A stretch of 39,205 nucleotides of DNA from Chiloscyllium plagiosum (Eukaryota). Below, in pieces: positions 3,350 through 34,021 of this stretch (positions within the stretch are counted from its first letter, which is position 1; each line of letters begins with the position of its first letter). The DNA lies in the NCBI RefSeq assembly GCF_004010195.1, contig NC_057719.1:30703619-30742823 (forward strand). The letters are read 5' to 3'. The notes below the pieces were generated by a model. That model was not told the origin of the DNA. It did not search any database and worked only from the letters and a program-made list of their open reading frames with translations. Both the position numbers and the translations under genes were made by a program.

Positions 3350-3440
3350 GAGTTCTGAGGAAGGGTCACTCGACCTAAAACGTTAACTTTCATTTCTGTC
3401 CACAGATGCTGCCAGACCTGCTGAGCTTTATTTTGCTGTC
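3350..3440 (+). mobile_element. Penelope-like terminal (pLTR) fragment with decayed hammerhead motif
   Basis: agtt-CTGAGGA-A-GGGTC-actc-GACCT-AAAA-CG-TT-aact (3355-3384) followed by cagatgctgccagacctgctgag shared with other PLE termini in the window. Confidence 0.7.
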
Positions 3441-3555
3441 AGTCTCTGCTCGTCTCCCCCCAGCACTGTACAGCTTGGAGTGGAGGGTAAAAATCATCAG
3501 AGATTCAGTTTACGAGGGACAGAGGGAGGGCAGCAGCTCACAGCATCATCAACAA

Positions 3556-3612
3556 ACACACACACACACACACAAACACACAGACAGTCACAGGCACACA
3601 GACACACACACT
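3556..3612. repeat. (CA)n-like microsatellite; a (TG)n-like tract also at 3262-3292
   Basis: Direct inspection. Confidence 0.9.
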
Positions 3613-3647
3613 CAGAGAAATAGACACATAACATGTGCAGAGAGAGA

Positions 3648-3772
3648 ACCTTATCAAACGCCTTACTAAAATCCATATATACCACATCTACCGCTTTCCC
3701 CTCATCAACCTCCTTCGTCACCTTTTCAAAGAATTCAATAAGGTTTGTGAGGCACGACCTGCCCTTCACAAA
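3648..3772 (-). mobile_element. Well-preserved CR1 RT fragment
   Basis: FVKGRSCLTNLIEFFEKVTKEVDEGKAVDVVYMDFSKAFDKV (within ORF 3497..3769), canonical CR1 RT. Confidence 0.92.
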
Positions 3773-5758
3773 ATGGGCAGATGGAATTTAAAATGGGAAA
3801 ATTTGAGATTATGCAATTCAGCAGAAAGAATGGAGGAACTGAGTATTAAAATGAAGAAATACTAGAGATAACTGCAGCACAGAGGGATTTTAGTTTGCTC
3901 ATCCATGAATCACAAAAAACTAGCATCCGAATTCAGTGGGTAAAGGGAAGGTAAAAGAAATGTTGACCTTTATTTCAAAGTGAATGGAATATAAGATAGA
4001 GAAGTTTTACTAAAACCATACAACACACTAGTCAGACCGCGTCTAGAATATTACAAACAAATTTGGTCATCCTATCTTAGGAAAGGTAAACTAGAATTGC
4101 AGGCAGTCCAGAGTAGGTTCACTAGTTGATCCAGGCATGGAGGGACTGTCTTATGAGGAGAGGTTGAGAAGGTTTGGCATGTAGTTTAAAAGAATGAAAC
4201 ATTATTGAACCATCCAGGAGTCTTGGGGACATTGACAGAATGAATGTGCAGAGATGTTGTTTCCCCTTGTGAGAAAGTCTAGTACCATGCCACATAATCT
4301 CGGAGTAAGGAGTCACTCATTTAAGACAGGGATGAGGAGGATTTTTTATTCCTTCAGAAAGTAGTGAATCTGTGAAAATCTTTACTGCACAAGGCTGTCA
4401 AGGCTGAATTATTAAGAGTATTAAAGGCTAAGAATCAAAGGTTATAGAGAAAAGGAAAATGGAGTTGAAGATTATTAGATCAACCATGATCTCATGGAAT
4501 GGTGAGCAGATTCAAATGGCCTGCTTTGGCTCCTATGCCTTATGGTCTTATTTATATATTTATAGTCTTACTTAAAACCAGAGTTCTTCTCACAATCAGC
4601 ACTGCTTCCTTGGTTCATATAAATCATCGTAATAAATTCAGCCTCCACAATATCATGTATGTAAGTTTATTACATTACCATCATGAGTGTTCCTCCCTAA
4701 TTCCAGCAAAACCTCACAAAATCAAAACTATGTTGTATAGCTTTACTACTAAACCATAAAGTTTATCTCGAGGAGTATGCCAATAAGCAAAGATGCAACC
4801 CTTATTAATAAGGTCATAATCTGAAAAAAACTCATAAGTTAATTATCAAAAATGATATAGTCACCCCACATTGGCATAATGCTAGTTTTGAGCAGATGTG
4901 GTGTGTAGAACTTTAGGTGAGATCATTCATTTTCATTTGTAGGATCTGCTTACACAGGCATAATTAAGGTTTTCAGTCTAATGGGCTCTCTAGACTGAAA
5001 TGAAATCAGGATGTCTCAATTTATTTCCTGGGGATTTGAAACCAATTGCAAAGAATTTCCCATAGGATACCTTAATTGTCTTGCAATACTGTTATTTGGT
5101 GATAAATCCCAAAGGTATATTTAAAATCTTGAAACTTTTTGCTTCCAGAATTAGAGATGGTTTTTCAGGTTATAAAATCTAAAGGTCTTTAATTGCAGTC
5201 TTTTTCTATTTAAATATTTTGCTCCTTTGGTACAATTTAAAGACAAGATAAAACACAAAAGGAAAACCTCCATTGGATGTATTAGTGAATAGGTATATCA
5301 AGAAATGGGTTAAATCTCTAAACTCAACCATTAAATGTAATGTTTATTCAACTTATCCCCTTTTGCATTGTGTAACGAGGAAATCGAATAGTCCTTATCA
5401 AAGGGAAACAAAATGCTCCTGGTACAACTGGATTAACATAGCTTGGCAATTCATTATCTAAAATAAACTCCAAATGACTTGCTTTCTGCTTGTACAGAAG
5501 TTCCAATGTCTTTAAAACTTTCAAAATGCAAAGATTTAACAAACCCGCCTATAATTCCAAAAAGAACCCACAAGGTGATGACAGCAATGGAAACTGCCAC
5601 TGCCGTGAATGCATGCAATTTCTGCCTTCTTTCCTATTTCATGTGTAAACTAAGCTTTATTTAACACTCTGTTGCTCTTGTACATGTTACTGTTGCCTTG
5701 TTACTGAATAATTCTTTGTTTTATGTGACAATATATAATAATTTCTTTGTGCCGGAAG

Positions 5759-6364
5759 GTTGGTGAAATTAAGGCTCACGCTGCTGAATGGAAAGCAAAC
5801 GTGACGGCAGAATTTAGGGAAACACGAAGGCGATTAAGTGTTGAAATTCATGACAAACTTCAAAGGGCAGCAACTATCCGAAACATGGAGCGAAGACGGC
5901 TTGGTTTGGACCAACGAGCCCACTCCCTTGACATGCTCTCCCCTGAGAAACGATTAGCATTTGCAGGTCTGGAGACAGGTCAGTTCAAGGCCTCCTCTCA
6001 GGAAAGTATAAATGGCAATTCTAATAATCTACAGCAGAAAGAAACAAAGCAATATGACAAACACATGCAAGGAGCTTCAGAGGACAACATCATCAATAAA
6101 GTTGGATCTTCAGCAAGAGGGCCCAAGAGATTCAAAAGTAGAGAACTAAAGAAAGAGATACCAGAGAATATTAGAAAAATATATGAAACATTTGGAAATC
6201 ACACATTGGATGAAGAGAAAAAGGAACAGGAAAAAGAGAAAGAAAACAATACAAATGTTCCAGCTATAACAAGTTACGTCCAGCATTCAGAAGCAGAAGA
6301 TGACAGAACAACCAATGAAGCCAAATATCCAGAGAATAGGAAATTACTTGAAAAAAAGATATGA
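5759..6364 (+). CDS. KCNK10: KCNK10 terminal coding exon: cytoplasmic C-terminal regulatory tail
   Basis: [64 protein letters not shown]...[10 protein letters not shown]...[11 protein letters not shown]...LDEEKKE is TREK-2-specific rather than TREK-1/TRAAK; stop TGA 6362-6364. Confidence 0.96.
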
Positions 6365-6425
6365 AAATACTATGGCGAACAATATAAAAAAGTTTGTTTG
6401 AAGATTTTTTTTATACTATTGACAT

Positions 6426-6433
6426 GTGCCTTA
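6426..6433 (+). promoter_or_regulatory. miR-124-3p 8mer target site
   Basis: GTGCCTTA = complement of miR-124 seed (AAGGCAC) plus A1, about 60 nt after the stop in AU-rich context. Confidence 0.6.
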
Positions 6434-7238
6434 TCATTTTAAAAATGTGGGAAAGCCATTTTCACACATGCATGGTCTACACAAACCTTTAGATTGATTT
6501 GTTATGCCACTGTGATATAGGGTTGAACTACCAAATATCAAACATAGGCTTGAATTAATCTGAACTATGGGAATGTGTTTGAAGACTACATTAGTACCAA
6601 CCTGGGAACATTTTATGTGGACTTAGTGCTCATTACCAATGCAGTATATCCAAGGAAAGAAGTGGATGGCTCTGTACATTATCAGAAGCTCCACTAAGTC
6701 TCCAATACGTTTATTACCGAGAGGATTCAGCTTTGGAAAATTTATGTCCACTTATTTATTACAATTGTTTTACAATTTTTCAACAAACATCAGTTTGTTT
6801 TAGGACCCTTGTGCATCTGCTTTGGCGTGTGTTGTACGTCCTGTTGAAGATGTTACATTTCTGATAGGTATACGAATTTCTGCAGCAGAGAAACACATCA
6901 GAGTCATGGCATTGCAATATTCTTGTGTAATTGTTGAAGACTGACATGAGCACTGAACAAAAGACTGCGGTCTGCATGTCCGTGTCTTTGTAATTTAGTA
7001 AGAAACTTCTATGACTGGTCTTGATAAATGTTGACTTCTCAGGGCTCGCTTGTCCTGCTTTTACAAGGTTTCCTATATTAGGTTTTAAAAAATATAGGGT
7101 GTTGGGAGTAATATTACACTAAAGTAATAATTCAAAGAAAGCATGTTGGTGTATGGATCTATGATCATTCTCTTTGTTGTCTGTGTACTTCTGCAATTAA
7201 TACAATTAATTTGTATTGGTTCTTGAAAATAATTAATG

Positions 7239-7271
7239 AATAAAGCAAAGACAGAATCTGATAAAATTAAA
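7239..7271 (+). terminator. Polyadenylation signals AATAAA / ATTAAA
   Basis: AATAAA 7239-7244, ATTAAA 7266-7271, downstream ttgtgctgtttttatctttt. Confidence 0.5.
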
Positions 7272-8429: not shown

Positions 8430-8790
8430 GCTGCCAACCCACATTCCCTGAGCTCTGCTCACTCTCCACCCATGGTACATCTAGCTGCACGTTCATTCCA
8501 CAGGACCTCAACACCTACTCCCTGAAAGCCCATTTTCATCTCCCTCCCTGGAATTTCATCCCTCATCACCCCTGGGTGCCCCATCCACCCTGACACCCCC
8601 AGGACCTCTATCCACCTGGAATGCCATTCCCTGCCCCATCTCTGCCTGAAACCACATTCCCATTCGAGAATTTCATCCTCTCATGCTACTCTACTCCATT
8701 CCCACCACCTGAGCCCAGAATCCCAATCTCCCTGGAACCCTACTGCCTCCTCCCCTCATGTTATTCCATCCCAAATTTCTATGACCCCAG
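8430..8790. repeat. C-rich low-complexity tract with imperfect cctg(g)aa repeats
   Basis: Strong C/pyrimidine skew on +; recurrent cctgaa/cctggaa units. Confidence 0.55.
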
Positions 8791-10879: not shown

Positions 10880-12150
10880 TGTACAGTCATAGTGCACAGA
10901 AAAGGCTCTTCAGCCCATCAAGTCTGCACCAATCTATCTATGATCTAATCCTATTTTCCAGCACTTTGCCCATAGCCTTGAATGCTATGTCATTTCCAGT
11001 GTTCAAAGTTTAAAATCACACAACACCAGATTATCGGCCAACAGGTTTATTTGGAAACAATAGCTTTCGGAGCGCTGCTCCTTCATCAGGTGGTTGTGGA
11101 ATATAAAATTGTAAGACACAATTTATAGCAAAAGTTTACAGTGTGATATAACTGAAATTATATATTGAATAAAACCTGGATTGTTGTTAAGTCTCTCATC
11201 TTTTAGAATGGCCATGTTGGTTTCAGTTCTTTCATATGTAAATTGCAGAACATTGAAAAGTTACATTCTCAAGTGAACTTTAACAATTGGTGTCATGTTG
11301 GCCCAGATAATGCATTTAAGGTGTGAGCTGTCCTGTATGAGACTATCTGCACCACAATGGTCAGACTTATTCTAATATAAAAAATTGATTTACAGAATCT
11401 TACATGGATTCATGCAGTTTTTGAGCAAAATAAAATGTAATTCTGCAAATACAAATTCAACCCACAAACTTATATGTATATGCGTGCAAACCTGTTGGAC
11501 TATAGTCTGGTGTTGTGTGATTTTTAACTTTGTATACCTCAGTCCAACACCGACATTTCCAGTGCTCATCCATGTACTTTTTAAAGGCTGTGAGGTTTGC
11601 CTCCCAGGCTGTTTCCATCCAGATTCCCACTACCCTGTGGGTGAAAACTATTTTCTCCAATCTACTCTCAATCTCCTGACCTTCATGTTAAAATTATGCC
11701 CACTCATTGTTGATGCTTCAACTAAGGGGAAACACTGCTTCTGATCCAGCCTGTCCATGCCCCTCATAGTATTATACACCTCAATAAGTATCTCCCGTCA
11801 ACCTTTTTTGCTCCAAAGAAAACAATCTGAGCCTAAGCAGCCTTTCTTCATAGCTAAAATGCTCTATTCCAGGCAACAGCCTGATGAACCTTCTCTGCAC
11901 GTTCTCCAGTGCAATCACATACTTTCTACAATGAGGTGACCAGAACTGTGCATAGTGCTCCAACTGTAGCTTAACCAAAGTTTTGTACAGCTCCAACATA
12001 ACCTCCCTGCTCTTATGTAAAGACTGATAAAGATGTTGCCCATATGCCTTTTTAACTACTCTATTAACCTGTCCTGTCACCTTCAGGGATCTCTGAATGA
12101 GCATTCCAAGATCCTTCTATTCATTTGAGCTTCCTAATTTCCTGCTGGTA
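10880..12150 (-). mobile_element. CR1 LINE 3' fragment interrupted at about 11001/11554 by a PLE-derived insertion
   Basis: ORFs 11781..12104 (REVMLELYKTLVKLQLEH..QFWSPH...LENVQRRFIRLLPG) and 11457..11660 (FTHRVVGIW...LTAFKKYMDEH); 3' UTR at 10885-11000. Confidence 0.88.
11002..11553. mobile_element. Non-autonomous Penelope-like insertion with 44-bp inverted termini and an intact hammerhead core
   Basis: IR 11005-11048 / 11488-11531 (about 4 mismatches); catttccagtg duplicated at 10991-11001 and 11554-11564; minus-strand CTGATGA-A-GGAGC-agc-GCTCC-GAAA-GC-TA at 11089-11061. Confidence 0.75.
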
Positions 12151-12300
12151 GGTTGAGGTTACAACTGAGTGATGGATAGGTGGTGTTTGGAACAACCTAT
12201 AATTTTAAGGAGGAAATTTCCTGCTGCACCCAGATCCACATTTAGATAAATGACTTGAACATACTTAACTATTGGTGGTAGTTGGCCTCCAACAGTCATT

Positions 12301-12527
12301 AGGAGAAAGTGAGGACTGCAGATGCTGGAGATCAGAACTGAAAATGTGTTGCTGGAAAAGCGCAGCAGGTCAGGCAGCATCCAAGGAGCAGGAGTATCGA
12401 CGTTTCGGGCATGAGCCCTTCTTCAGGCATGAGCATTCCTGAAGGAGGGCTCATGCCCGAAACATCAATTCTCCTGCTCCTTGGATGCTGCCTGACCTGC
12501 TGCGCTTTTCCAGCAACACATTTTCAG
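12301..12527. mobile_element. Palindromic (head-to-head) PLE terminus pair with two hammerhead motifs
   Basis: About 90-bp arms 12338-12427 / 12438-12527 are near-perfect reverse complements; ctccaacagt duplicated at 12287-12296 and 12528-12537. Confidence 0.8.
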
Positions 12528-12693
12528 CTCCAACAGTTCTTATAAGGACGATGTGTTAAGCTGCATGAAGAGGTGGCATTGGTTATTTTGGGCAAGCAAA
12601 CATTATAGGATACTTAATTTGCACACTGGGGAGTCAGGAGGTGACTGCAAGAGTCCTAGACTTTGACCTGTTCTTGTAGCTACTATATTATAT

Positions 12694-12806
12694 TCCTGAT
12701 GAAGAGCTTATGCTCAAAACATTGATTCTCTTGCTCTTCAGATGCTGCCTGACCGGCTGTGCTTTTCGACTCTGATCTCCACCATCTTCAGTCCTCACTT
12801 TTTCCC
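12694..12806 (+). mobile_element. Short PLE-terminus insertion with hammerhead motif
   Basis: CTGATGA-A-GAGC-ttat-GCTC-AAAA-CATT (12696-12723) ...cagtcctcactttttccc; atattatat duplicated at 12685-12693 and 12807-12815. Confidence 0.75.
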
Positions 12807-13693: not shown

Positions 13694-13744
13694 ACATGGA
13701 TTACTTCACTATCTGAGGAGTCACAACCATTGCTGAACATTGAT

Positions 13745-15045
13745 CATATGAAAGATGAGCAAAGATTGACCAGTCAGTCTTCCAAGTCTGTTCTGCCATT
13801 GAATAACACCATTCAAGAGAAGAAATTTCTCCTCATCTCTGTTCTACAATGACAAACTCTATTTTTAAAAGCAATCCTCCCTAGCTGTGGAACCATCTCC
13901 ATTCTTTTCACCTTCAATTTGTCAAGATCATTTGGGATCTTATTCACATTGATCAAGTCACCTCACACTCTTCGAAACATCAGTGGAATAAGTCCAGCCT
14001 GTCTATTTTTTCCTTATTAGGCAACCCTCTCATTCCAGGAATCAAACTAGTAAACTTCCTATGAGTCACCTCCAAAGTTCCTTAAATAAGGAAAACAAAA
14101 TTACACACAGTTTTGAGATGTCCTCTATAACTGAACCATAAAATTGTTAGTTCTATGCTGAATTTATCAGGTAATAGAAGATAGAATCTCATTAACCTTC
14201 TTGATTTTGTTTTGTAAGTACATACTAATTTTATGTAACTCATGCACCAGAACATTTAAATTCCTCTGCACCTCAGAATTCTGCAGTCATTCTCTAGTTA
14301 AGTAATTTTCTGCATTTTTATTCTTCCTGCCAAAGCAAATAACTTCACATTTTCACAACTTACACTCATCTGTCAGAATTTTGGCCCACTCACTCAACCT
14401 ATCTATATCCATCTCCAACCAAACTCTTGCCCCAATCAAATAAGTCATTAATGTAAATCATAAAAAGTTGATGCTCTAACACAGATACTCGCAGACCTCT
14501 GCTCATCACATCTTGCCAATCAGATAAAGACCCATTTATGCATATTTTCTGTTCTTGCCAGTCAGCCTATCTTCCATCCATTCAAATACATTATCCTCTA
14601 CACTATGAGCTTTTACTTTCCACAATAACCTTTGATGTGTTCCATAAACTAAAGCCTTCTGAAAATCCAAATATAGTATGTCTATGGGCTCCCCTGTATC
14701 CACAGCTCATGTTACTCTTTCACAAGAAGACCAATAAGTTGGTTAACCATGATTTCCCATTGACAAAATGTTTGTAGGGTTTTCTAACTTCATAGTTATA
14801 ATCTTATAGTGTTCAATTTTAAAACATCCTCACAACAGACAGCAAGCTAATTGCCCAATAGTGTTCTTTTTCCTGCCTCGTTTACAGTCCGATGGGATCT
14901 TTCCTGAATTCACAAAATCTTGTAAAATTAACCCTAACTCATCTCCAATCTCATTTGAAATGTTGTTTAAAATTTACAATGAAATCCATCTGGACCTAGA
15001 ATCTTGTCAGCCAGCAGCTCCATCAATTTGTTTAGTACCACTTGC
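13745..15045 (-). mobile_element. Old CR1 LINE ORF2/3' fragment
   Basis: CR1-typical reverse-strand phrases (aagaaatttctcctcatctc, acttcacattttcaca, aagccttctgaaaatccaaata, ccatctggacc); heavily mutated. Confidence 0.7.
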
Positions 15046-15930
15046 GAATGGTTGTTGAGAAAAGACACATTTTGTTGAAGCCATTTTTTGGTCCTCATCA
15101 GAGTGTTTTGCAAGAACATAAATTCAAGGGGAACACCATCTGTACTGCATGAGAGGAGAATGCTGACTGGTTGGCAAATGGATTCTGATTTCCAGAGGTG
15201 TTACCATTGAGAATGTAACTGTTAATGCTGATTGACAGTTAACAGCCTGGTTTTATTCAATTTTAAACCAGTCGGGTTGACTCTGATTGAGGAGGTAATT
15301 GCCCTGAGAAATGAACCAGTGAATGTCTTATGCCTATTTTGTTGAGTTGAAACAGGAACAGTGTCTGTACATGTTCTTTCTATCTGCGAAGAACAGTCCC
15401 GTGTATTAGTACATGCAACTACCAGTACACGCAAGTGTGCCACACTGAGGCCAACTAACAATCCTACTCAAGGTCTGTACTACTAAATGACTATTTGCGT
15501 CCTGAGACAGAGGTACAACAAAGATATAAATAACTTAAAGTTCCATTGAATTCTTTCAAGAATGTATTAAACCCAAGATTGTGCCAGTTTTCACGCCCAA
15601 ATCCACAGATAATATTAAAATGAGACAAAGTCTCACAACTGAATGGGTGTTTATGCAAGAAGATATTGAACAGATTGCTAATAGAATTATTAACTTGTGC
15701 TGTGCCCAACACTGCACTTGGTCTAAAGTGCACAAATTTCTTTCAATTTTGATCTATTTATGCCACTATATTGCTTCTATAGATGACTGCACTATAAACA
15801 ATGCCCGATTAAAACATGCTTGCACCATAAATTTAAAGTGGTTTGGCAACACAAGTAATGATTCCAATAAATATGTGGTAAATCTCCCTGACCATTTCTG
15901 TCTGAAAAGTGAAGAGTTTGTCCTTGTACA

Positions 15931-16207
15931 CAGGAGTTCTGAGGAAGGGTCACAAGAAGACCAATAAGTTGGTTAACCATGATTTCCCATTGACAAAATG
16001 TTTGTAGGGTTTTCTAACTTCATAGTTATAAGCTTATAGTGTCAATTTTAAAACATCCTCACAACAGACAGCAAGCTAATTGGCCAATAGTGTTCTTTTG
16101 TTAACTCTAATTTTTCGTCATAGATGGTGCCATACCTGCCGAGTTTTTCCAGCAATTTTTGTTTTGTTTCTGATTTACAGAATCCGCAGTTCTTTTGGTT
16201 ATTTTTT
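15931..16207 (+). mobile_element. Short PLE-terminus insertion whose hammerhead is split by a copy of 14721-14870
   Basis: TSD agtttgtc(c/t)ttgtaca 15915-15930 / 16208-16223; gagtt-CTGAGGAAGGGTCAC | 149-bp insert | gtt-aactc. Confidence 0.8.
15951..16099 (+). repeat. Near-identical direct copy of 14721-14870
   Basis: cacaagaagaccaataag...gtgttctttt; 2 substitutions and one 1-nt indel. Confidence 0.95.
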
Positions 16208-17185: not shown

Positions 17186-18319
17186 GAATGGTCGGGTTCA
17201 TTCTCACAATTCATTGCAGCTCCTTATACATGGACTGTCCAAGACATACAAAAATGTTTTTTCTTTACATTGTCATATCTATGACTGGTTCTGTATAACA
17301 TGAACTGGCCAAATGGTTGGGTGAACTCTCACAACCAGTTTTGAGCAGGTTCCCTACTTACACAGTGAAGGAGCCCTTCACATTTGCAAAGACCTTACAG
17401 GACTTACATAACAATAGCAATACTCTCTCCATATGTTCATTTAACATTGGTAACCTATTCACTCAATGTACCCACTCAAAGAAACCATAAACACCTGCAC
17501 TTCAACACTATATATGGGCAACATAGACAGCAACTATTGTGAATCTGTATTAATTGAACTTATGAACTCAGCAGCTTGTGCAGTTGAATTCAGTCTCAAC
17601 AACATTGTGTATGCTGAAAATAGATGGTGTTGCCATGGAATCCCCACGAGACCAAGCTCTCACAAATATCCTAATATGATTCCATTGGAAATGTGTCTTC
17701 AATGGAATGGCACCTATCCTTCTACCCTTGCATATTTCTGACATGTTGATGATATGTTTGCTATATTTAAATCAGCAGCTGCATGTAATAATTTCCTAAT
17801 GTGTTAATGGGCTCAATCCTGCACTCAAACTCATGTTTGAAATGGAGCTATCAAATAAGTTACCTTTCCTTGATGTCCTAATTGATAAATTGGTCAGTAC
17901 ATTCTCTAATATTCTCTACTGCAAATGTACCTTCATTAGTGCGTACACTTCTTTGGATTCCTACAGTTCCATTTGTTGTAAGGTTAGCCTTTTTGGAAAC
18001 CTTGTAAATAAGCATTAACTCAGTTCTTCACCATACAAACCTGATGCTGAAACATGGCACAATAAAGCCATCCTGCAGGATAATTGCTGCCCTGATCAGA
18101 TATTTTTCACGATATATCAATGCTCATTTCTTCCTGTGTCACAGCGTCATGGCCAGTTTACAAATCCAAACTGCAGCCTCCACTCTCATCTAAAGAGGCT
18201 GAGACAACCTTACACCTATAAGGCGATTGCAAAGATTGACACTCCTACATTTCTGCCTTCTGGGATCCCTTACCTCTCACCTCTCCTGATCATTGATCAG
18301 ATCAGATTACCCTATCTTA

Positions 18320-20266: not shown

Positions 20267-20437
20267 GTGATCATTCTTTACAATACTGGAGTGGTTGAAT
20301 ATAACTGCAGCAGGCAAATGGCTAAGGATGGAGTCAAGTATGCTTTTCCCTCTTGATAGTTCTCTCACTCTTACCATACAAAACATCTAGCAGGTATGTC
20401 CATAAGGATTCACTCAGCTTGGACAATATTGAAGCTG

Positions 20438-20551
20438 ATTTGCCCGAAACGTCGATTTTACTGCTCCTCGGATGCTGCCTGAACTGCTGTGCTCTTCCAG
20501 CACCACTAATCCAGAATCTGGTTTCCAGCATCTGCAGTCATTGTTTTTACC
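20438..20551 (+). mobile_element. 114-bp PLE-terminus insertion, 5'-truncated inside hammerhead stem II
   Basis: Perfect 14-bp TSD caatattgaagctg (20424-20437, 20552-20565); starts atttGCCC-GAAA-CG-TC. Confidence 0.85.
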
Positions 20552-20696
20552 CAATATTGAAGCTGCTGAGCCACTGTTAGGGATGGATATCAAAGTATTC
20601 CATTCTGTATCCTTGCCATCCTCAATGCTTCCACAAAATAGTGTTCAACATGGAGGAGTACTGATTCATCAGCTGAGGCAGTACAGTATATTATCT

Positions 20697-21196
20697 NNNN
20701 NNNNNNNNNNNNNNNNNNNNNNNNNNNNNNNNNNNNNNNNNNNNNNNNNNNNNNNNNNNNNNNNNNNNNNNNNNNNNNNNNNNNNNNNNNNNNNNNNNNN
20801 NNNNNNNNNNNNNNNNNNNNNNNNNNNNNNNNNNNNNNNNNNNNNNNNNNNNNNNNNNNNNNNNNNNNNNNNNNNNNNNNNNNNNNNNNNNNNNNNNNNN
20901 NNNNNNNNNNNNNNNNNNNNNNNNNNNNNNNNNNNNNNNNNNNNNNNNNNNNNNNNNNNNNNNNNNNNNNNNNNNNNNNNNNNNNNNNNNNNNNNNNNNN
21001 NNNNNNNNNNNNNNNNNNNNNNNNNNNNNNNNNNNNNNNNNNNNNNNNNNNNNNNNNNNNNNNNNNNNNNNNNNNNNNNNNNNNNNNNNNNNNNNNNNNN
21101 NNNNNNNNNNNNNNNNNNNNNNNNNNNNNNNNNNNNNNNNNNNNNNNNNNNNNNNNNNNNNNNNNNNNNNNNNNNNNNNNNNNNNNNNNNNNNNNN
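20697..21196. other. Assembly gap (500 N)
   Basis: Run of N. Confidence 1.
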
Positions 21197-21368
21197 TATT
21201 GTACTCTTTGTTACCTTCTCCCCAGCCCACCCACCCCATTTATCTCTCCACCCTGGAGGCTCCCTGCCCCCATTCCTGATGAAGGGCTTTTGCCCGAAAC
21301 TTCGATTTTCCTGCTTCTTGGATGCTGCCTGACCTGCTGTACTTTACCAGCACCACTCTAATCTAGAC
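21197..21368 (+). mobile_element. PLE 3' terminus running out of the gap, with hammerhead motif
   Basis: CTGATGA-A-GGGC-tttt-GCCC-GAAA-CT-TC at 21276-21303; homologous to 33850-34020. Confidence 0.8.
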
Positions 21369-23650: not shown

Positions 23651-24025
23651 AAATAGAGACACTGAGTTAGCACACTTTTATACCCAGTGTGCTGATGGGA
23701 AAAGAATTAGTTTCGAGCACAAACCATCAGAAAGGGGAAATAACTTTTATCCTCTCTTCCTTCTTTAAAATCTCTTTCATCAAATTTTGTGAGTTGAAAC
23801 ACCTCATCCCTGCAAGTAGAGATTTCTTAAAAGAGAAGTTGGGGGGGATCCAAGATGGCAGCAACCTAGGAAGTTTGTGTTGCACAGCTCCGCACTGCAG
23901 CGCAAACAGGACGAACTTTTAACCCGCCCTACCCGGACCACCGCGATATCCTGGGACTCTGCAAAGGTCGTGGAGTCCTAGGAAACTGCTAAAAATCAAC
24001 TTACCTTGGTTTTTGTCGTCCAGGG

Positions 24026-24826
24026 ATGCCGAAGACGGGAAGAGGAGCGTCTGAGGCCAGGCCCACGGCCCAACCTGCAGGATCCTCGGACTCGATTTCT
24101 TACCAGGCCTTGGTGAAGGAGCTCGCAAGATGTTGGGTAAGCGGAAAGAGGAGAAGCTGGCCCCGATCTCTATCATACTGCAGAAACGCAAACAGCAACT
24201 GGGAGACCTGAAGAAAAGGATGGATGAGGTAGAACACAGAGTCACAGTGGTGGAAGCTGGTATCGGTTCCTCCAAGGTTAGGATTCAGGCCCTGGAGATG
24301 CAGGTCTGTAATTTGCTTGATCAAGTTGATGACCTCGAGAACAGGGGCAGGAGAAAAAAATATTCGGATCGTTGGCCTGTAGGAGGGTAAGGAAGGTCAG
24401 CGGCTGGTGGAATTTATTGAGAATTGATTGCCGAAATTCCTTAACTTGGAGGCTGGAAAGAGAGGTTAGAAGATTGAGAGGGCTCACTGGGTCACGGCAC
24501 AGAGGTTAGGTTCGTATCAACGTCCTCGTCCTATCTTGTGCGGTTTCATTACTGTAGAGATAAGGAGAGAATCGTGGAAGCTTCCAGAATCCAGGGGAAG
24601 GATCCAAAGGCCCTAGTTTACGAGGGCTATAAAATCATGTTCTCCCAGGACTTCTCAGTGGTGGTGATCCAGAAAAGAAAATCCTAAGACATTGTCAAGA
24701 GAAGATTGAGGGAGCTCGGGATCCAGTACTCTCTGATGGTGCTTTCAATCACCATTGATGGATCCACACATCTCTGACACGTCAAAGAAAGCAAGAGACT
24801 TTGTGGACAAATTAAACTTAATCTGA
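24026..24826 (+). pseudogene. L1 ORF1 (coiled coil + RRM + CTD), frameshifted
   Basis: DDLENRGRRK.IRIVGL*EG.E, LKIERAHWV, QRPRPI, IMFSQDFS motifs across frames. Confidence 0.9.
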
Positions 24827-25478
24827 AAAATTTAGTATGTACAAATAGTAGTGTTGTTTGGATATGTCTTTGTTTTTTCTTTTAAAAAAAAGAAGTCTAG
24901 TCAGGGATTTATTTTCCTATCTTTTTTATTGGTAATAATCTGGTCTAAACTATGTTTGGCGGCTTTTGAGATATGTACTTTCAATTTCTAAGTTAAGTTA
25001 TACCAAAGGATGGGTAGAGTACCTAATGTCTTTTCTTCAAAATTTCTTTATTCACATTGCTATTCCATGGGGTATTTTCTTTCTTTCCTGCTTGCATTTG
25101 TGGTGTGGCTCTAGCTAGGAGGAGGGAAATGGTTGGGATGGCTGGATGCCTTCTTACAGGCAGTTTATCCCTGGTTCAGGTATTTAAATGACCTGGCTGC
25201 AGTTTTGGCAGTGGGATGGGAGGTTGGGTTTTGGGATGCGTAGTTGCCCCCTTTGGGCAGGGGGCTGAGTTCTCCTATTCAGCGCCGTTGGTGCTTTATA
25301 TGTTGGTTTGTGTTTTGGTTTTTGTTGTAAATAGTCTTTGATAGATTTGTAGGTTTGTTAACTGTAGTGGTTTTGGTTTATGTAGTTTTTATATTCAATT
25401 GATCTTGCAAGACTAAGACTCACTGATTTGTGGTTCGAGTTCCTCCTCTCTGGAATCTAAATGTTACTGCAGAAGGTT

Positions 25479-28400
25479 ATGGCTAATGAATTGATTAAAT
25501 GGTGCACCTGAAACATCAAGGAAAGTTTCTCACCAATTAAGAGGAAAAAGGTACATTTGAGTCTTAGCAAGGAAAAGGTGGATATTGCTTTGTTACAGGA
25601 GACACACTTGGATGATTGGGAGCATTTGAAACTACAGCAGAATGGCTTTGATCAGGTTTACTTTTCATCTTTTAAGACGAGAGATAGGGGAGTGGCTATA
25701 TTGGTTAGGAGGAATCTCCCATTTAAGTTACTAGAGTGCATTAAAGACACACAGGGAAGTTTGGTAATTCTCAAAGCCTTGATGAATGGGGAAGAATATG
25801 GTGATTTAAACGTTAATTGCCCTCCGGCCCATCCCCTCAAATTTCTGATAGATGTGTTCTTTAAATTGATCACTCTTGAGTCCCGACATATCATTATAGG
25901 GGGAGATTTTAATTGTCTTATGGACCCCACAGTAAACAGGTTGTCCAAAGGCTCCCTGATACCATCTGTACACACTAAACAATTAGTGGATCAATGTGTG
26001 GAGTTAGGTTGGTGGATGTCGGGAGCAGGAATTTTACATTTCTTTACGATCCACAATGATGTTACACCAGGATTGATTTTTTTTCTGTCCCCGTGGCAAC
26101 CCTGAGCTTGATGGCATCTTGTACGTTTGATAATATTACCATCTCTGATCACACTCCAGTGTACCTGTTGGTTAAAATTAAGGATGTTACAGTGGGTTCG
26201 AGGCACTGGCAAAAGGATCCCTTTATCCTCAAGGATAATAAGTTTGTGGAGTACTTCTCTAGGGAGTTTCGGGCATTCCTAGACATTAATTCAGGCTCGG
26301 TTAGTAGCCTGTCCGTCCTTTGGGAAACTGCCAAAGCCTATGCCGGGGGTGAATTATTTCCTACTTTGCCAGTATGAAGTGGCAGAAGGGTGAGCAGCAA
26401 TGTCTTCTCGAAGCACAGTAGAAGGCAGCTGAGAAGGCTTACTTTGACAGACCCTCGTTGGTCAAGCTACAGAGGATTAGGGCACTGCGGTCTGCATTGA
26501 ATTCCGTGCTCACACAGACAGCAAAGAAGGAGCTTACCTTTGCAAAGCAAAAGCTATATGAGCATGGTGACAAACCGGGCAAGTACCTAGCATATCTTGT
26601 CAGGTAAAGGAATGCCCATCAAGCCATTACATCGATTAGGGAAAGGTCCGAGAACCTAACATGTGATTCCAAAAAAATTAATGTGGCATTCCAGAGATTT
26701 TACTCTGAATTATACCAATCTGAGGTCTGTGAGGCGGGGCGGGGCAAGATGAAGTCCTTTTTTCGAGGATCTGGAGCTCCCAGATATAACCCCCGAACAA
26801 GAATCTTTTCTCAATTCCCCCTTATCAGAGCAAGAGGTGCAAGAGGCTGTGAAGCAGCTTCAGAGTGAAAAGGAGCCTGGTCTTGATGGACTCCCCAGCA
26901 AATTCTATAAGGAATTTATAAACATACTGTCAGGCCCGATGCTCAATATGTTTAGTGACTCATACAGTCATGATTGTCTCCTGCCATCTCTGAGAGAGGC
27001 CAATATTTCACTTATTCTTAAAATAGGGAAGGTCCTGGAGGGCTGTGCTTGGTACAGGCCCATTTCACTCCTAAATGTGCACTTCAAAATAATGTCTAAG
27101 ACTCTTGAGTTAAGGCCGGAGACTGTGTCACCTTCTATTGTTAAAGAGGACCAGAAGGGCTTCATAAAGGACTTCAGATCCTCCAATAATGTTAGGAGAC
27201 TGCTTAATGTAATTCAAACATGTCATCAACAGTCAGTACAGGGATTGGTGATTTCTCTAGATGCAGAGAAGGCATTTGATTGAGTTGAGTGGCCATACCT
27301 TTTTTATATTCTGGAGCAGTTTGATTTGGGCGAAGCCTGTATAAGATGGGTAAAGCTTCTCTACAGTGATCCTCTTGCTGCGGTCATCACCAATGGCAGG
27401 GCTGTCCCCTTTTGCCATTGCATTTTACATTGGTGATTGAACCATTGGTGGAGGACATTCATAGGGATCTTAATATATCGGCTCCAAGAGTGGGGTCAAA
27501 ATTACATAAGAGCTTGTTGTATGCAGACGATGTCCTCATTTGTTTTGGCAAATCCAGCAGTTTTGGTGCCTTGCCTGATAAAATGCATCAGCATGTTTGG
27601 CACCTTTTCGGGATACAAAATCAGAGGCTATGCCCATGGGTGGTCTTACGAAAGTGCTAGGTCTTGAGGATGAACATTGATTCCCATTTAAGTGATCACA
27701 GAGGGTTTTGTGATTTTGGCATATTCATTACTCCAGTTCTTGATCGGTTGTTTAAAGCTAATTTTGTTCAATATTTTGACAAAATCAAACAAGACCTTCA
27801 AAGATGGGAGGCACTACCGGTCTCATGGTAGGTCGGATAGCGCGTATTAAGATGAATATTCTCCCGTGTTTGTTGTACCCTATACAGATGCACCCCCTGA
27901 TTTTCAATAAGCAAACGTTCAGGAGACTGAATGGCTGGTTCAGCTCTTTTAGTTGGCATCATAAGCAGCCCCTTATTAAATTAGCTAAACTGAAATTGCC
28001 TCACAGATTGGGGGGAGTGGATCTCCCAGACATTAAAAACTATCAACTAAGCTTGTTTTTATCTTACATGAGTGATTGGGCTTGTGGGGACCCCCTTTCA
28101 ATATGGTTGGATATTGAAACCTCTCTACTAGCTTGCTGTTTTTGGACAAAATGAGGACGGTTAAGGAATATTGCCATAACCCAGTAGTTATCAATACTGT
28201 TAAAGCGTGGAGGGCAATTCGGCAGAGTGAAGGCAATATTGGCAAAACACCTCCTCTTACACGTTTAGTGGGTAAATCAGGTTTTCAATCGGGGATAATA
28301 GATTCAGGATTCAACCATTGGGCAGCTAGGGGTGTGTCTTGCATGGGCGATTTATTTGAGGGAGACACAATGATGTCCTTTGATCAGTTAACATGGAAGT

Positions 28401-29186
28401 ACAAGCTATCTAACAGGGGCCTCTTTTGTTTTTTTCAAATTAAGGATTTTATTCAAAAAAAGACTACACTTTTGACTGATCCCTACAAATCCGACATAGA
28501 GAGGAGGTGTTCAGTGCTCAGAGTACACTTTCTGTCAGCACTTTATATCATCAATTGGGCAGAGCACTCCCTCAGATGAGTTTGATTGGCTCTGCAGGGA
28601 GAGAAAACTAGGCATTGAGGTCTCCTCAGAGACATGGGAAGATATTTGGGAAAACACAAGAAAGATATCAATTTGCAATAGGACCCATACTTTATAGTTG
28701 AAGATTCTCCACAGGATCCACTTGGCTCCAGATTGTTTGTCAAAATTTAAACCAGGGGTATCTTGAACATGTCGCAAGTGCAAGGTGATAGGGGCACTCT
28801 TAACTCATTGTCTCTGGTCCTGTGTAGGCTTCAAACATATGGAGCACTGTGGTGGGTGCAATGGAGGGGATTTTGGGTGTAAGGGTGGAGAAGGACTCAA
28901 CCTTACTTCTTTTTGGCCTGGCCAGTGTGTTCCCTGCAGTTGCACATAAGAAAAGATTTTTAAGCGTCCTCACTTTCTGTGCAAGAAAGAATATTTTGTT
29001 AGGTTGGGATCCGAAAATCCCCTGGGCCTGTCGGGTTGGCGGAAGATTATTATGGAGCATATCCTCTTGGATTTTCTTACGCGTACAGTACAACACAAGA
29101 CTGAGAACTTCTATAGGACATGGTGGCCCTTTTTGGAATACCCAGACACAGATTTGTCTGCCACACTAATAAGGGCTTTTATATAG
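25479..29186 (+). pseudogene. L1 ORF2 (APE endonuclease, RT, Cys knuckle), multiple stops and frameshifts
   Basis: IALLQETHL, GGDFN, ISDH, PGLDGLP, YRPISLLN, SLDAEKAFD, QGCPL, YADD (27520-27531), CRKCK...HCLWSC (about 28770-28823). Confidence 0.95.
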
Positions 29187-29567
29187 CTGTAACGATTGTG
29201 ATTTACGAGTCCAATATCCAGAGAGGGGGAACTGCGAATGTATGAATAGGTGAAAACTAATGCTCTCGATATTCGAGACTGAGTGTTTTGTTTGGCTGAG
29301 CTGAGTTATTATTATTTATTCGTTTGTCGTGGTTATTATTTATTTAGTTAAGTAGTGAGTTGGAGTTTTTTTAATATATTTTTTTCTATACATATTTATA
29401 CATTTGTACCTGAGGGCGGTTTGGCTTTTTAACATTTTTTTTAGTGTTCTTTGTTTGTATTGTTTTGCATTTGTTGTAATATTAGAAAATCTATTTTTCA
29501 ATAAAAATATATTTAAAGAAAAAGAGAAGTCTGTATCCATATTATCTTCTCCAGAAAAAGAGAACCA

Positions 29568-30545
29568 ATCACAGCATTGTTACAGTGCTGAAGGAAGCAT
29601 TTGACCCACCATGCTTGCATCAATTCTAACACATAGTGCCAAATTCCTATCTTTTCCCCATATCTCTGCATACCATTTCTATCTAAGTAATAATTCTATG
29701 CCCTCTTGAATGCCTCAATTCAACCTGCTTTGACCTCATATCCAAACAATGCATTGTATATCCTAACTACTCCCAGTCTAAGGAAGGTTTTCTCCCATCA
29801 TCCTGGCTTCGTTTGAACATCACTTTAAATCTATGCTCTCTCTTTTTTCTCTTTTACAAGTAGGAATAGCTTCTCCCTATCAACTCTATCCATCCCGCAA
29901 ACAAAACCTTTGTCAAATCTCCTTTTTGCCTTTTCTTCAAGGAGAACAGTTCCAACTTCTTTAAACTAATCTCGTAAGTGAAGTGTCCCATTCCTGGAAA
30001 CAGTTTTGTAAATTGACTCTGCACTTTCTCCAGTGCATTCACATCTTTCCGATAATGTGGTGTCTACAATTGTACTTCAGCTCAGATCTAACAAGTGTCT
30101 TTCTCATGTTAAACATCACCTCCTTGTTCAGTAATCTATGCCCCTGTTAATATTTCGCATATCTAGCCACCTTCAATGATATGCGCACATGCAGGTCTCT
30201 CTGTTCCTGTAGCCCCTTTAGAATTGTACCCCCTACTTTTATTGTCTTTAATATTGTTCTGATCAAACCTTACACTTCTTGCATTGAATCCATTTGCCAC
30301 CTATCTGCTCACTCCACCAATTTTTAAATATCAGTTTGGAGTTCCATACCAACTTCCTCATAATTTATAGTTCTTCCAATTTTAATGTTATCTGCAAGCT
30401 TTGAAATTGTTCCCATCACACCAAGATCCAGGTTATGAATATGTATCAGGAATAGCAAGAGTCCCAGCACCAACCACTGGGGATCTCCACTATAAATCTT
30501 CCCTCAGCCTGAAAAATATCCATTGGCCAGCTATCAATCAGCCAC
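29568..30545 (-). mobile_element. CR1 3' fragment
   Basis: ORF 29854..30042 ALEKVQSQFTKLFPGM..FTYE..LKKLELFSL; FKLADNIKIG-like at 30375-30405. Confidence 0.8.
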
Positions 30546-30550
30546 AACTG

Positions 30551-31076
30551 ATCCAGGAAGAAATTCCAGCATCAATATCTTGTGTGGAAAGTGACTTTGG
30601 CTACAGACCAGCATTTTACTATTTTTTGAACAAGTTTATTTGTTAATTTAAGCAACCTAGCTGACTTGTTTCGGGTGCCTGTAAATATGTTGATATAAAC
30701 CATAATAACACTGTCAGCTTCCTTTAAAACACAAATTTAATGTGGCCAACAGAAAGGAAAGGAATCAAGTCCACCCTCCCCCCCCCCCCCCCCCCCCCCC
30801 CACCAAAAAAAATTTTTTTTAATTACAAAATCCAGGAAGAAATTCCAGCATCAATATCTTGTGTGGAAAGTGACTTTGGCTACAGACCAGCATTTTACTA
30901 TTTTTTGAACAAGTTTATTTGTTAATTTAAGCAACCTAGCTGACTTGTTTCGGGTGCCTGTAAATATGTTGATATAAACCATAATAACACTGTCAGCTTC
31001 CTTTAAAACACAAATTTAATGTGGCCAACAGAAAGGAAAGGAATCAAGTCCACCCTCCCCCCCCCCCCCCCCCCCC
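30551..31076 (+). repeat. About 250-bp tandem duplication ending in poly-C (probable assembly artefact)
   Basis: 30551-30801 and 30830-31076 appear identical apart from poly-C length. Confidence 0.9.
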
Positions 31077-32140
31077 AACAGCCATAGCAATAAACTTTTA
31101 TTGTAGTACAAATAACAGAACAGTTCAAATCTGCTTCTGAAAGGTCCTCCTTCTCATCCATTCTGTTCCTTCTTCCTGTCAACAGCATCTTCTGCTCATC
31201 ATCCAACCCTCTGTTGTGATTGTTTTCCTTCAGATTTTATTTCCTCAGCTTTAAATCATGATTCCCTTCATGAGCTCTAAAATGGCAATGAAAATTGTGT
31301 TTCTTTAATTCACTTCTTGATCTATTTAACTTTTGAGTTAAAATGAATTAGCTCTTCAGTTAGTTAATTGCAGTCAAAAGAAACTGCGTGTTTATGCTAA
31401 GGCCGGTGTAAATCTCAAATGTTTTCATTAGATTGTTCATGCACAGAGATGACTTTTAGTTCATGGGAAATGAATATAAAAACTAGCAATACCTGGAAAT
31501 GAACATCCTAGTCATATTGAGTTTCATTTTGAAGTATACAAGACAAGTCAGACCAATGCATTCTTTGCATGTTTACAGGGTTTTCTTTCTACTTACTCAT
31601 AGTTGTATAAACATCAACAAAGCTTAGTGTTCATGGAAATGGATCTAATGCTGTTTTACTCAACTGAATCTTAACTCCTGGAAACAGATGATTTAACCTT
31701 ATGTCAGAGATTAAAATGTAACAAATCTAGAACAGGAATTAAATGTTCTGATAACTGTTACTTCATGGATTTTAATGTAGACAGGACAAGGGTGGGGAGG
31801 GGGGCAATGTAAGCAATTTGCTAGTGGAGGCTATTTGATTATGTAAATATTCTAATAAGGCCGCATGCCCTCACTTAACAATTGCTTCATGTTTTAACCT
31901 GCTGCTTGGTTCCTGGACCGTGGACATTCCAAGGTTCAAAAGAGCCATGAAGGATATTGAACAATGAATGCCTTTTGCAATGTTTGTGAGCAAGGATAAT
32001 CACAAGGATTTCCTCCATGCCCAATATTCTAATATAGTGATCCTCACTTATGTGATTTGTCTGTTTCAACTCCTCCACTCTGCATCTCATGTCTGAACCA
32101 CCATCTGCTCTACAATGGGACATCCCACAGCTACCACCAT

Positions 32141-32417
32141 ACAGCACGGTGGCACACTGGTTAGCACTGCTGCCTCATAGTGCCAGAGACCTGGGTTCAA
32201 TTCCCGTCTCAGAAGACTGTCTGTGTGGAGTTTGCACATTCTCCCTGTGACTGTGTGGGTTTCCTCCCACAGTCCAAAAATGTGCAGGTCAGATGATTTA
32301 GCCATGCTAAATTGCCTGTAGTGTAGGGGAATGGGTCTGGGTGGGTTGCTCTTCGGAGGGTCAGTGTGGACTTGTTGGGCCGAAAGGCCTGTTTCCACAC
32401 TGTAAGTGATCTAATCT
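32141..32417 (+). mobile_element. HE1-type V-SINE (tRNA head, V domain, CR1-derived tail)
   Basis: A box tggcacactgg 32150-32160, B box ggttcaattcc 32194-32204, ctgtgtggagtttgcacattctccc V core, tail gggccgaaaggcctgtttccacactgt...atctaatct. Confidence 0.9.
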
Positions 32418-32492
32418 GGAACCACCTCCCTGCAATGTGAATACACCCCAGTAATTGATTTTTAAAATTCCTGTCTCCTATATTCGGCAAAT

Positions 32493-34021
32493 AGGAGAAA
32501 GTGAGGACTGCAGATGCTGGCTATCAGAATCGAAAAGGCAGCATCCGAGGAGCAGGAGAATTGACGTTTTGGGCATAAGCCCTGCATCAAGAATGCGAGG
32601 AGGAGGAAAGCGGCTGAGAGATAAATAGGATGGTGGGGGAAGGGCAGTGGGGAAGATAGCTGGGAAGGTGATAGGTAAATACAAGTGGGGAGGGTAATGA
32701 TGGATAGGTTGGAGGGGAGGGTGGAGCAGATAGGTGGGAAGGAAGATGGATAGATAAGGCCGTTCAAGAGGATGGTGCTGAGTTGACAGGTTGGATCTAG
32801 GATGAGGTGGAGGGAGGGAACATCTAATTCAAAGCCACTAACTCCCACAGTTACCTGGACTACACCTTCTCCCACTCCCCCTCCTGTAAAAACATTATCC
32901 CTTACTCCCAATTCCTCCGCCTCTGTTGTATCTGCACCCAGGCAAAGCAATTCCACTCAGGACATTCCTGATGGCCTCCTACTTCAAGGACCGTGATTTC
33001 CCCTCCCATGTAATCAACAATATCCTCCAGTGCATTTCCTCCACTTCCCGCACCTCTGCCCTTGAACCCAGCCCTTCCAATCGCAACAAGGATAGAAAGC
33101 CCCTGGCCCTCACCTTTTACCCCACTAATCTCCGGATACAGCATATTATCCTCCATTTCTGCCATCTACAATCTGACCCACACCAAAGATATATTTCCCT
33201 CCCCACCTCTATCAGCATTCTGCAGAGACCATTCCCTCCACAACTCCCTCGTTGGGTCTACGCCCCCCACCAACCCACCCTCCACTCCCGGCACCTTCCC
33301 TTGCTGCTGCAATGGGTACAAAACCTGCACCCACACCTCTCCCCTCATCTCCGTCCTAGGTTCCAAAGGATCCTTCCACATTCAGCAGGATCCTTCCTGC
33401 ACAACCAAACACCTCATCTATTGTGTCCGTTGCTCTTGATGTGGTCTCTGCTACGTTGGAGTGACAGGATGCGAATTTGCAGAACATTTCAGGGAACATC
33501 TCTGGAACATGCACCAAACAACCCCACTGCCCTCTGGCCAATTACTTCAACTCCTCCTCCCACTTCCCTAAGGACATGCAAGCCCTGGGCCACCTCCACC
33601 GCCACATCGAACCCACCTGATGCCTGGAGAAAGAACGCCTCATCTTCTGCCTTGGGACCTTCCAACCACATAGCATCAGCGTTTATTTCACTGGTTTCCT
33701 TACCTCCCCTCCCTCCACCTCATCCTGGATCCAACCCTCCAACTCGGCACTGCCCTCTTCAACTGCCCTACCTGTCCATCTTCCTTCGCACCCAACCGAT
33801 CCACCCTTCCCTCCAATCTATCACCATCACCCCAACCTGTATGTACATATTGCCTTCCCAGTTACCTTCCCCCCGGCCCCATCCTGAACCGCCTATTTAT
33901 CTCTCAGCCTCTGCCTCCCCACCCCACATTCCTGATGAAGGGCTTATGGCTAAAATGACTATTCTCCTGCGCCTCAGATGCTGCCTGACCTGCTGTGCTT
34001 TTCCAGCATCATACTTTTTGA
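32493..34021 (+). mobile_element. 5'-truncated Neptune-type Penelope-like element with inverted 5' pLTR
   Basis: Inverted terminus 32493-32812; + strand SHSYLDY..SH, PYSQFLRL, Cys linker PGTFPCCCNGYKTC, GIY-YIG LIYCVRCS*CGLCYVG.TG; hammerhead remnants 32563-32590 (-) and 33932-33959 (+); decayed TSD 32475-32492 / 34022-34039 (14/18). Confidence 0.9.

Follow-up and report, generated by a model that had tools for sequence, protein, structure and literature searches.

Ten short motifs resembling hammerhead ribozymes lie in a 39,205-nucleotide stretch of the Chiloscyllium plagiosum genome (contig NC_057719.1, positions 30,703,619 to 30,742,823; hereafter the window), and the locus raises the question of what these motifs are, how they arrived and whether any could still cut RNA. 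Judged by sequence, they are minimal type-I hammerheads in the terminal repeats of Penelope-like elements (PLEs) of three families, here called A, B and C. We consider it very probable that they are remnants left by such terminal repeats, likely decaying without selection. All ten sites listed in an earlier, sequence-only reading were present where it had placed them, with the stem II arms and palindromes it quoted, but they represent only eight insertions, because the motifs at 12399-12426 (minus strand) and 12439-12466 (plus), and likewise those at 32563-32590 (minus) and 33932-33959 (plus), are each the two arms of a single event.

A strict descriptor (CUGANGA, an optional extra base, stem II of at least 4 bp, GAAA, N1-4 and UH) matched four times in the window, compared with a mean of 0.1 (maximum 1) across 30 dinucleotide shuffles. 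Three of these matches are copies already named in the earlier reading; the fourth, at 34332 on the minus strand, is A/U-rich and belongs to none of the three families. Allowing one core mismatch gave 8 matches versus 2.2 ± 1.6 (maximum 7) in shuffles, and allowing two gave 36 versus 24.5, so relaxed matching on its own is weak; degenerate copies were recognised through the flanks common to members of a family. An Rfam covariance-model search of the window returned seven matches at E ≤ 10, none of them a hammerhead and none at the gathering score. Pattern scans elsewhere yielded 2 viral, 78 prokaryotic-genome and 1 metagenome match, and at the thresholds applied the flanks of none of these 81 were homologous to those in the window.

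Family A is tied to PLEs by a long insertion that includes protein-coding remains. An inverted, long-tailed 5' arm (32492..32818, minus strand; motif 32563-32590) is followed by a decayed, 5'-truncated reading frame (32822..33698, plus) in which the reverse transcriptase (RT) thumb region, a Cys linker and a GIY-YIG endonuclease can be traced through stops and frameshifts, and then by the 3' UTR and terminal repeat with a short tail end (33700..34020, plus); the insertion has a weak 14-bp target-site duplication (TSD). The motif of this terminal repeat (33932-33959) is in sense, ~230 nt downstream of the GIY-YIG remnant. With 33014-33436 as the protein query, a full HMMER search found 214 proteins at E ≤ 0.001; when 12 of these were domain-scanned, six had both RVT_1 and GIY-YIG, several under the curated cut-offs. 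A profile built from 18 of the matching proteins covers 32822-33692 at E 1e-52, and a word-indexed protein search with the same query passed none of 493 candidates. A further family A RT piece lies at 38983-39204. The order of RT followed by a C-terminal GIY-YIG domain, and the terminal-repeat position of the motif, were seen for family A only, and not for B or C. The CX2-5CxxC linker, a candidate mark of the Neptune clade that is absent from Penelope/Poseidon (PMC8557442), was found in all seven long homologues of family A checked and is degenerate in the window.

The remaining family A copies are shorter. A head-to-head insertion consists of a long-tailed arm (12300..12431, minus) and a short-tailed arm (12433..12530, plus) that are identical at 90 of 96 positions; it is flanked by a 15-bp TSD with two mismatches (at 12287 and 12528). 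Three plus-strand stubs complete the family: 12692..12806 (motif 12696-12723), with a weak 11-bp TSD; 20438..20551, cut off inside loop II with the whole first box (CUGANGA) absent, and bounded by an exact 14-bp TSD (20424-20437 and 20552-20565); and 21210..21368 (motif 21276-21303), which adjoins an assembly gap. In three copies the family A unit extends upstream by 66, 228 and ~1100 nt, reaching into a GIY-YIG frame.

Family B is joined to family A through tail homology (E about 1e-5), and no ORF in the window links it to a PLE. One copy (3350..3431, plus strand; motif 3355-3384) lies in sense in the last intron of kcnk10, of which the preceding exon is at 112-261 and the last coding exon, a 100% match to a Chiloscyllium KCNK10 protein, at 5759..6364 (plus). 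This copy has a 5-bp stem II, an intact palindrome, a G12A change and a helix I of 5 bp (3350-3354 paired with 3385-3389), and no TSD was found for it. The other copy (15934..16207, plus) is split within stem II and has a 16-bp TSD with one mismatch, at 15915 and 16208. Family C is represented by a main unit (11004..11490, minus; motif 11061-11089) with ~400 nt of upstream repeat and a short tail end, together with an inverted piece of its tail (11488..11555, plus); a 15-bp TSD with one mismatch occupies 10991-11005 and 11554-11568. No family C ORF occurs in the window, and its membership of the PLEs is one that we infer from architecture alone. The several Penelope-like families proposed earlier are three, of which A is supported by the RT/GIY-YIG frame and B by tail homology, but C by architecture only.

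An inverted 5' copy and a 30–40-bp tail are typical PLE anatomy (PMC8557442, PMC3846280); here, inverted arms occur in three of the eight insertions, and the long and short tail ends are 35 nt apart. TSD scores reached at least 9 in four of eight insertions, compared with 4 of 300 random pairs; two more insertions have weak TSDs and two have none. The window copies share with Neptune-like EN+ PLEs their 5' truncation, inverted 5' copy, one-end tail, TSD and C-terminal GIY-YIG (PMC8557442, PMC3846280), but no full-length or partial-tandem copy lies within this window. They likewise resemble Poseidon PAc of Anolis (PMC11167929) in having a terminal-repeat hammerhead, and in the two reverse-transcription start sites that define a 30–40-nt tail in PAc. 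However, the in vitro work on PAc concerned an intact Penelope/Poseidon element, whereas the CX2-5CxxC linker is present in the full-length homologues nearest to family A.

How much of the ribozyme persists varies among copies. The pattern put forward for all of them (CUGANGA-A-stem II-GAAA-NN-UH) is exact in three of the eight whole motifs, while the other five depart from it by one to three changes. All eight have the extra A between A9 and G10.1, and the 10.1-11.1 pair is G-C in six and G-U in two. In stem II, 33 of 34 cells are paired in the eight window motifs; pairs were counted by position because a MAFFT alignment of these motifs shifted family C by one column. For the suggested covariation of the stems, the eight motifs offer four double-sided changes in stem II, at three pair positions, but three of the four lie between families, so just three to four independent lineages are sampled here. 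A 4-nt palindrome, also noted earlier, is indeed kept in four of the eight whole motifs and in the truncated copy at 20438, as ACGU in families A and B and AGCU in C. Helix I, on which the earlier reading was silent, is 5 bp in family B, 3 bp in C (taking the majority base in assembled contigs) and 2+1 bp in A, and its closing pair is kept in just four of eight window copies.

The cores at 11061 and 12399 had been singled out as intact. Both are, but a third, at 21276-21303 (plus), had been overlooked, and both named copies have a damaged helix I that makes them poor test constructs in their present form. The motif at 11061-11089 combines its intact core with the AGCU palindrome but has lost the closing pair of helix I: it has U at 1.1, where G accounts for about nine-tenths of the depth of aligned assembled contigs, in a comparison limited to the best-supported 40 of 229 differences and in which summed depth is not copy number. 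At 12399-12426 core and palindrome are intact and helix I is reduced to 1 bp, and at 21276-21303 helix I is 2+1 bp and the palindrome is broken (ACUU). The core is altered at 12439-12466 (A9G, with a broken palindrome and the 1.1 pair lost), at 12696-12723 (G12A, with an A-U pair at 10.2-11.2), at 32563-32590 (C3U, A9C and G12A) and at 33932-33959 (G12A, with a G.G mismatch breaking stem II and U16.1 lost). None of the eight whole copies combines an intact core, the palindrome and a helix I of at least 2 bp.

The proposal that G12 is lost through CpG decay agrees with our counts: G12A is present in four of the nine copies that retain this position, and changes are in excess at CpG sites (17 of 56, versus 26 of 368 elsewhere; p = 3.5e-6), 15 of the 17 being transitions. 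In family A, such decay falls on three functionally critical CpGs, namely C11.1-G12, the palindrome and C17-G1.1. Among seven copies from five insertions, a sample in which weak selection on single copies would escape notice, the core has changed at 4 of 64 positions and the tail at 12 of 196 (p = 1); the core is no better kept than the tail, and so no post-insertion selection is visible. Most of the window copies are mutated, and they are likely dead. As dispersed here, they would not be expected to cleave: five are core-mutated, two are fragments, in three either helix I or the palindrome is damaged, and for the head-to-head pair a single long hairpin is the predicted fold.

The 5' ends of the copies bear on how they were made. 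Not one copy begins at the cleavage site, and five of ten start 4-9 nt upstream of C3. The PLE protein may have taken uncleaved RNA as its template, beginning reverse transcription at the tail, proceeding in the 5' direction and usually halting at the motif or shortly past it, which would account for copies that keep the core and never begin at the cleavage site. By analogy with published relatives, the motif of the source element would cut after UH only as a dimer formed through the 4-nt palindrome, and weakly, probably aided by the element's protein. In the anole PLE studied by Frangieh et al. (2024; PMC11167929), the hammerhead depends on the element's protein, insertion in vitro does not require the hammerhead, and the main template is unprocessed RNA. 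The clustered starts, along with TSDs on most insertions, are also what a discrete short template would give. On that view the short units would form a non-autonomous family of their own, retrozyme or SINE-like, that spreads through its own small, possibly circular RNA and borrows the PLE enzyme. Tandem non-LTR retrozymes, PLE-derived and with type-I hammerheads as here, have been reported in a chondrichthyan (bioRxiv 10.64898/2026.07.22.740005). They consist of tandem units each with a motif, however, whereas the shark copies occur singly or in head-to-head pairs, with no tandem array overlapping any motif in the window; moreover, no copy shows permutation at the cleavage site, and the graded upstream extensions of family A fit nested 5' truncation. 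We regard this origin as improbable.

Less probable still is that some of the dispersed copies remain active, or have been domesticated, as ribozymes that cut host transcripts, pairing in trans through the common palindrome with other transcribed copies. The catalytic core is kept in three of eight whole motifs, one copy is sense in the last kcnk10 intron, and the families are very abundant and are contained in contigs of a sequencing run guessed to be RNA, but the intronic copy carries G12A, no copy unites the three features listed above, and conservation of the core does not exceed that of the tail. Homodimer folding, which considers secondary structure only, gave the hammerhead arrangement a poorer score than that of the predicted minimum in four of four cases, and the dimers described in the literature cleave weakly. 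That the likeness is a chance product or a DNA-level hairpin signal, with RNA catalysis absent from the history of the family, we consider negligible: it could draw on the lack of an Rfam hammerhead match, the unremarkable folding energies calculated for four copies (z from −0.8 to +0.2) and the frequent chance matches of relaxed descriptors, but three families that differ in the sequences of stem II, helix I and palindrome nonetheless keep core boxes, spacing and pairing, and the motif sits where PLEs of other animals have it, one of which has been shown to cleave.

Returning to the preferred reading, of decaying PLE terminal-repeat remnants, minimal hammerheads in the pLTRs of metazoan PLEs, complete with the palindrome and an additional base following A9, were described by Cervera and De la Pena (2014; PMC4209133). 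Those ribozymes share with ours CUGANGA, one extra base, a G-C-closed stem II, GAAA, a palindromic 15.2-16.2, UH and a short helix I, and also occur as several families per genome, mostly as solo copies of truncated PLEs and as opposite-strand pairs. The rows for Acropora and Nematostella in the part of their Fig. S3 that was compared have nearly the family A layout; unlike the present shark locus, the rows compared include no cartilaginous fish. Neither this class of motif nor the elements that carry it are new to the literature, so the window adds a taxon and not a mechanism.

The expectation of a very large number of motifs is borne out in that the families are very abundant. Extrapolation from this one window puts the density of intact cores at ~0.8 x 10^5 per Gb (0.16-2.3 x 10^5), and that of motifs at ~10^5 per Gb, to be set against published vertebrate counts of about 4,000 in coelacanth and 9,000 in Xenopus tropicalis (PMC4209133). 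We tentatively suggest, at somewhat under even odds, that carpet sharks hold ~10^5 motifs per Gb, at least 10 times the published vertebrate counts, that where new insertions of these elements usually begin at their 5' end is set by the upstream edge of the uncleaved motif rather than by its cleavage site, and that the motif may serve as a transcript start or reverse-transcription stop and not as a template cutter. If the scale holds, three families with dated copies in the hundreds of thousands would allow the function of the PLE hammerhead to be probed, from where insertions end relative to the cleavage site and from how far the motif is constrained in source lineages. Since helices are broken even in those window copies whose cores are intact, family-majority motifs would suit a bench assay; family B, with its helix I of 5 bp, is the predicted best cutter, and unmodified window copies are expected to show little or no activity.

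The two family B copies hint at such constraint: their heads are identical across 20 nt and their tails differ at 11 of 46 positions (p = 0.026), which may reflect constraint on the motif, most simply in source lineages. In the split copy, the head (15934-15953) and tail (16100-16207) are separated by a 150-nt copy of 14720-14870 (15950..16099, plus; 148 of 151 columns identical), which replaces the lost part of the motif at 15939/16100, 12 nt that include the 3' arm of stem II and GAAA. Capture of host DNA by the PLE was considered as the source of this insert and judged less likely than later repair, since 3 of 151 columns separate the insert from its source, compared with 11 of 46 between the family B tails (p = 8e-6). 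A Pfam oxysterol-binding match at 15539-15964 scored under the cut-off and was dropped. The left junction of the insert has 4 nt of microhomology.

The ten hammerhead motifs claimed by the sequence-only reading are all present in the window at the places it described, and they are real, correctly identified and of a kind already known, the minimal type-I hammerhead of Penelope-like elements (PLEs); what is new is a shark member of that kind, whose copies in the window are mostly decayed. Their anatomy, homology and decay are directly observed. By self-comparison and nhmmer, the copies, named by window position and strand, comprise seven of family A (12426-, 12439+, 12696+, 20438+, 21276+, 32590-, 33932+), two of family B (3355+, 15939/16100+) and one of family C (11089-), and no other motif-bearing pieces of these families were found in the window. 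Tail homology joins A to B (best E about 5e-6); C lacks such homology. A strict descriptor gave four matches against 0.1 expected from 30 dinucleotide shuffles: three are the listed copies 11089-, 12426- and 21276+, and the fourth, 34332-, lies outside every family. Allowing one core mismatch gave 8 matches against 2.2 in shuffles (shuffle maximum 7), allowing two gave 36 against 24.5, and none of seven weak matches in an Rfam search of the window was a hammerhead; degenerate copies are therefore recognised by homology, not by descriptor.

That the motifs lie in PLE termini was borne out for family A, in which the 33932 motif sits ~230 nt downstream of a decayed PLE frame on the same strand, but no open reading frame for B or C was found in the window. 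The frame (33014-33436) has 214 protein matches at E≤0.001; among 12 matched proteins scanned, RVT_1 was detected in nine, GIY-YIG in seven and both in six, several of these domain matches falling below curated cut-offs. Matched proteins align over 32822-33698 with stops and frameshifts (profile E 1e-52), and a CX2-5CxxC linker in 7/7 long homologues points to a Neptune-like clade. A PLE reverse transcriptase (RT) fragment at 38967-39205, which continues past the window end, has at most 68% identity to fetched proteins and looks comparatively young; the 13-14-nt inverted family A tail end preceding it makes a miniature of the same architecture. A third, heavily decayed PLE-like RT region lies at 17212-17991 (profile E about 1e-14); a hammerhead motif was not seen in its vicinity.

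The ten motifs derive from eight insertions, since 12426-/12439+ are two arms of a single palindrome (90/96 identical) and 32590-/33932+ are both ends of a single 1.5-kb insertion. Flanking direct repeats accompany four insertions at scores matched by at most 4/300 random pairs, and weaker ones two more (9/300); none was found for the 3355 insertion or for that at 21210, beside the 500-N gap at 20697-21196. Three insertions have inverted arms, each with a longer tail on one arm, and the long and short tail ends of family A are 35 nt apart. Inverted arms, unequal tails and direct repeats are PLE anatomy according to PMC8557442 and PMC3846280. The palindrome centre (12420-12438) contains a second copy of 9 nt from the antisense loop of stem II, possibly the trace of a template switch at a microhomology.

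The stems had also been said to covary, and 33/34 stem II cells indeed pair, with double-sided changes at three positions (10.2-11.2 in copy 12696, 10.3-11.3 in family C, 10.4-11.4 in families B and C), although the lineages number only three or four. Helix I and the palindrome (ACGU versus AGCU) also vary between families with pairing kept; across three or four lineages, these changes fit selection on structure in the source elements. Decay by CpG loss, measured in family A (seven copies, 62 columns, reference its own majority), was confirmed: 17/56 CpG cells have changed against 26/368 elsewhere (p=3.5e-6), 15 of the 17 by transition, and three of the four CpGs lie at critical places. Non-CpG cells have changed at 4/64 in the core and 12/196 in the tail (p=1). 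This comparison has low power, some of its copies are interdependent, and three of the tail mismatches come from a deletion in a single copy. Over 20 nt the heads of the two B copies do not differ at all, yet their tails do at 11/46 (p=0.026), which would count against pure neutrality.

Within stem II of the family B motif 15939/16100+, a 150-nt copy of 14720-14870, 1.2 kb upstream, stands at 15950-16099 in place of 12 nt, with 4 nt of microhomology at its left junction. It matches its source far better (148/151 identical) than one B tail matches the other (35/46), and so seems to have been added by templated repair at a later time, though it may be an assembly artefact.

Among the eight whole motifs the core is intact in three, the two anticipated (11089- and 12426-) and 21276+; the G12 loss ascribed to many others is found in four as G12A, and one further copy has A9G alone. 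PMC6155905 describes G12 as the hammerhead's general base, so copies carrying G12A are predicted to be inactive. The palindrome and the closing helix I pair are each retained in 4/8, and core, palindrome and at least two helix I pairs occur together in 0/8. Copy 11089- has U directly after the cleavage site, where G makes up 89-95% of depth in contigs of four runs and gives family C a 3-bp helix I; 12426- has 1 bp, and the 5-bp helix I of family B forms in the predicted fold. The palindromic pair is predicted to form a single hairpin (about -177 kcal/mol), which would sequester the motif. For all four homodimers folded, the predicted minimum scored better than the hammerhead arrangement, which would be in line with a hammerhead needing help.

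PLE minimal hammerheads cleave weakly, as dimers via the palindrome, according to PMC4209133 and the review PMC6765202; the window motifs have their sequence features and, in the source elements, would have worked alike. They lack the tandem arrangement of non-LTR retrozymes. Five of ten copies start 4-9 nt upstream of C3, one within loop II and four from 66 to about 1100 nt upstream; 0/10 begin at the cleavage site. Where run contigs pass into unrelated flanking sequence, their ends cluster at 12300-12302, the long tail end (about 3,000 in run X1); 351 lie at 12427, a count biased because the compared stretch stopped at 12432. This 5'-end pattern agrees with that of the anole PLE, for which PMC11167929 describes unprocessed RNA as the main template, a protein-dependent hammerhead and no RNA-seq reads ending at the cleavage site. 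The PLE protein would use uncleaved RNA for insertion, beginning in the tail and finishing near the upstream edge of the motif.

A very large genomic number had been proposed. The 38,705 called bases contain eight whole motifs, of which three have intact cores; these counts extrapolate to 2.1 x 10^5 (0.9-4.1 x 10^5) and 0.8 x 10^5 (0.16-2.3 x 10^5) per Gb, respectively, but from a single window chosen for motif density. In X1, 138,375 contigs align to 1,473 bases, with a summed depth (not a copy number) of 2.0 x 10^7 over the family A segment against 4-45 in adjoining unique bins; X4, X10 and X15 have the same profile. PMC4209133 counted about 4,000 for coelacanth and about 9,000 for Xenopus tropicalis, and cartilaginous fish are absent from the accessible part of its Fig. 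S3. None of the papers found in our literature search describes these shark families; tandem repeats that bear hammerheads are reported from one chondrichthyan in a 2026 preprint (bioRxiv 10.64898/2026.07.22.740005).

Collection scans found no homologous copies among 81 loci at the thresholds applied. Eight loci of one Stappiaceae genome bin (L016, L034, L035, L040, L056, L066, L074, L078) share one and the same minimal-hammerhead-like motif, flanked by helix-I-like sequence, and similar motifs occur at two loci of another bin (L018, L028) and on one metagenome contig (L081); these could be PLE DNA of a host animal that entered the bins, or genuine prokaryotic repeats. The window also holds the last two kcnk10 coding exons (112-261 and 5759-6364), the last with a protein match that is 100% over 200 aa to Chiloscyllium plagiosum and 98% to two other carpet sharks, which marks the host as a carpet shark. 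Only copy 3355 is intronic, the others lying at least 4.7 kb beyond the kcnk10 stop. A decayed element at 23900-29200, with Pfam matches to AP-endonuclease and RT, we take to be LINE-1/Tx1-like, and many fragments elsewhere are presumably CR1-like. A near-perfect 279-nt tandem duplication occupies 30551-31112.
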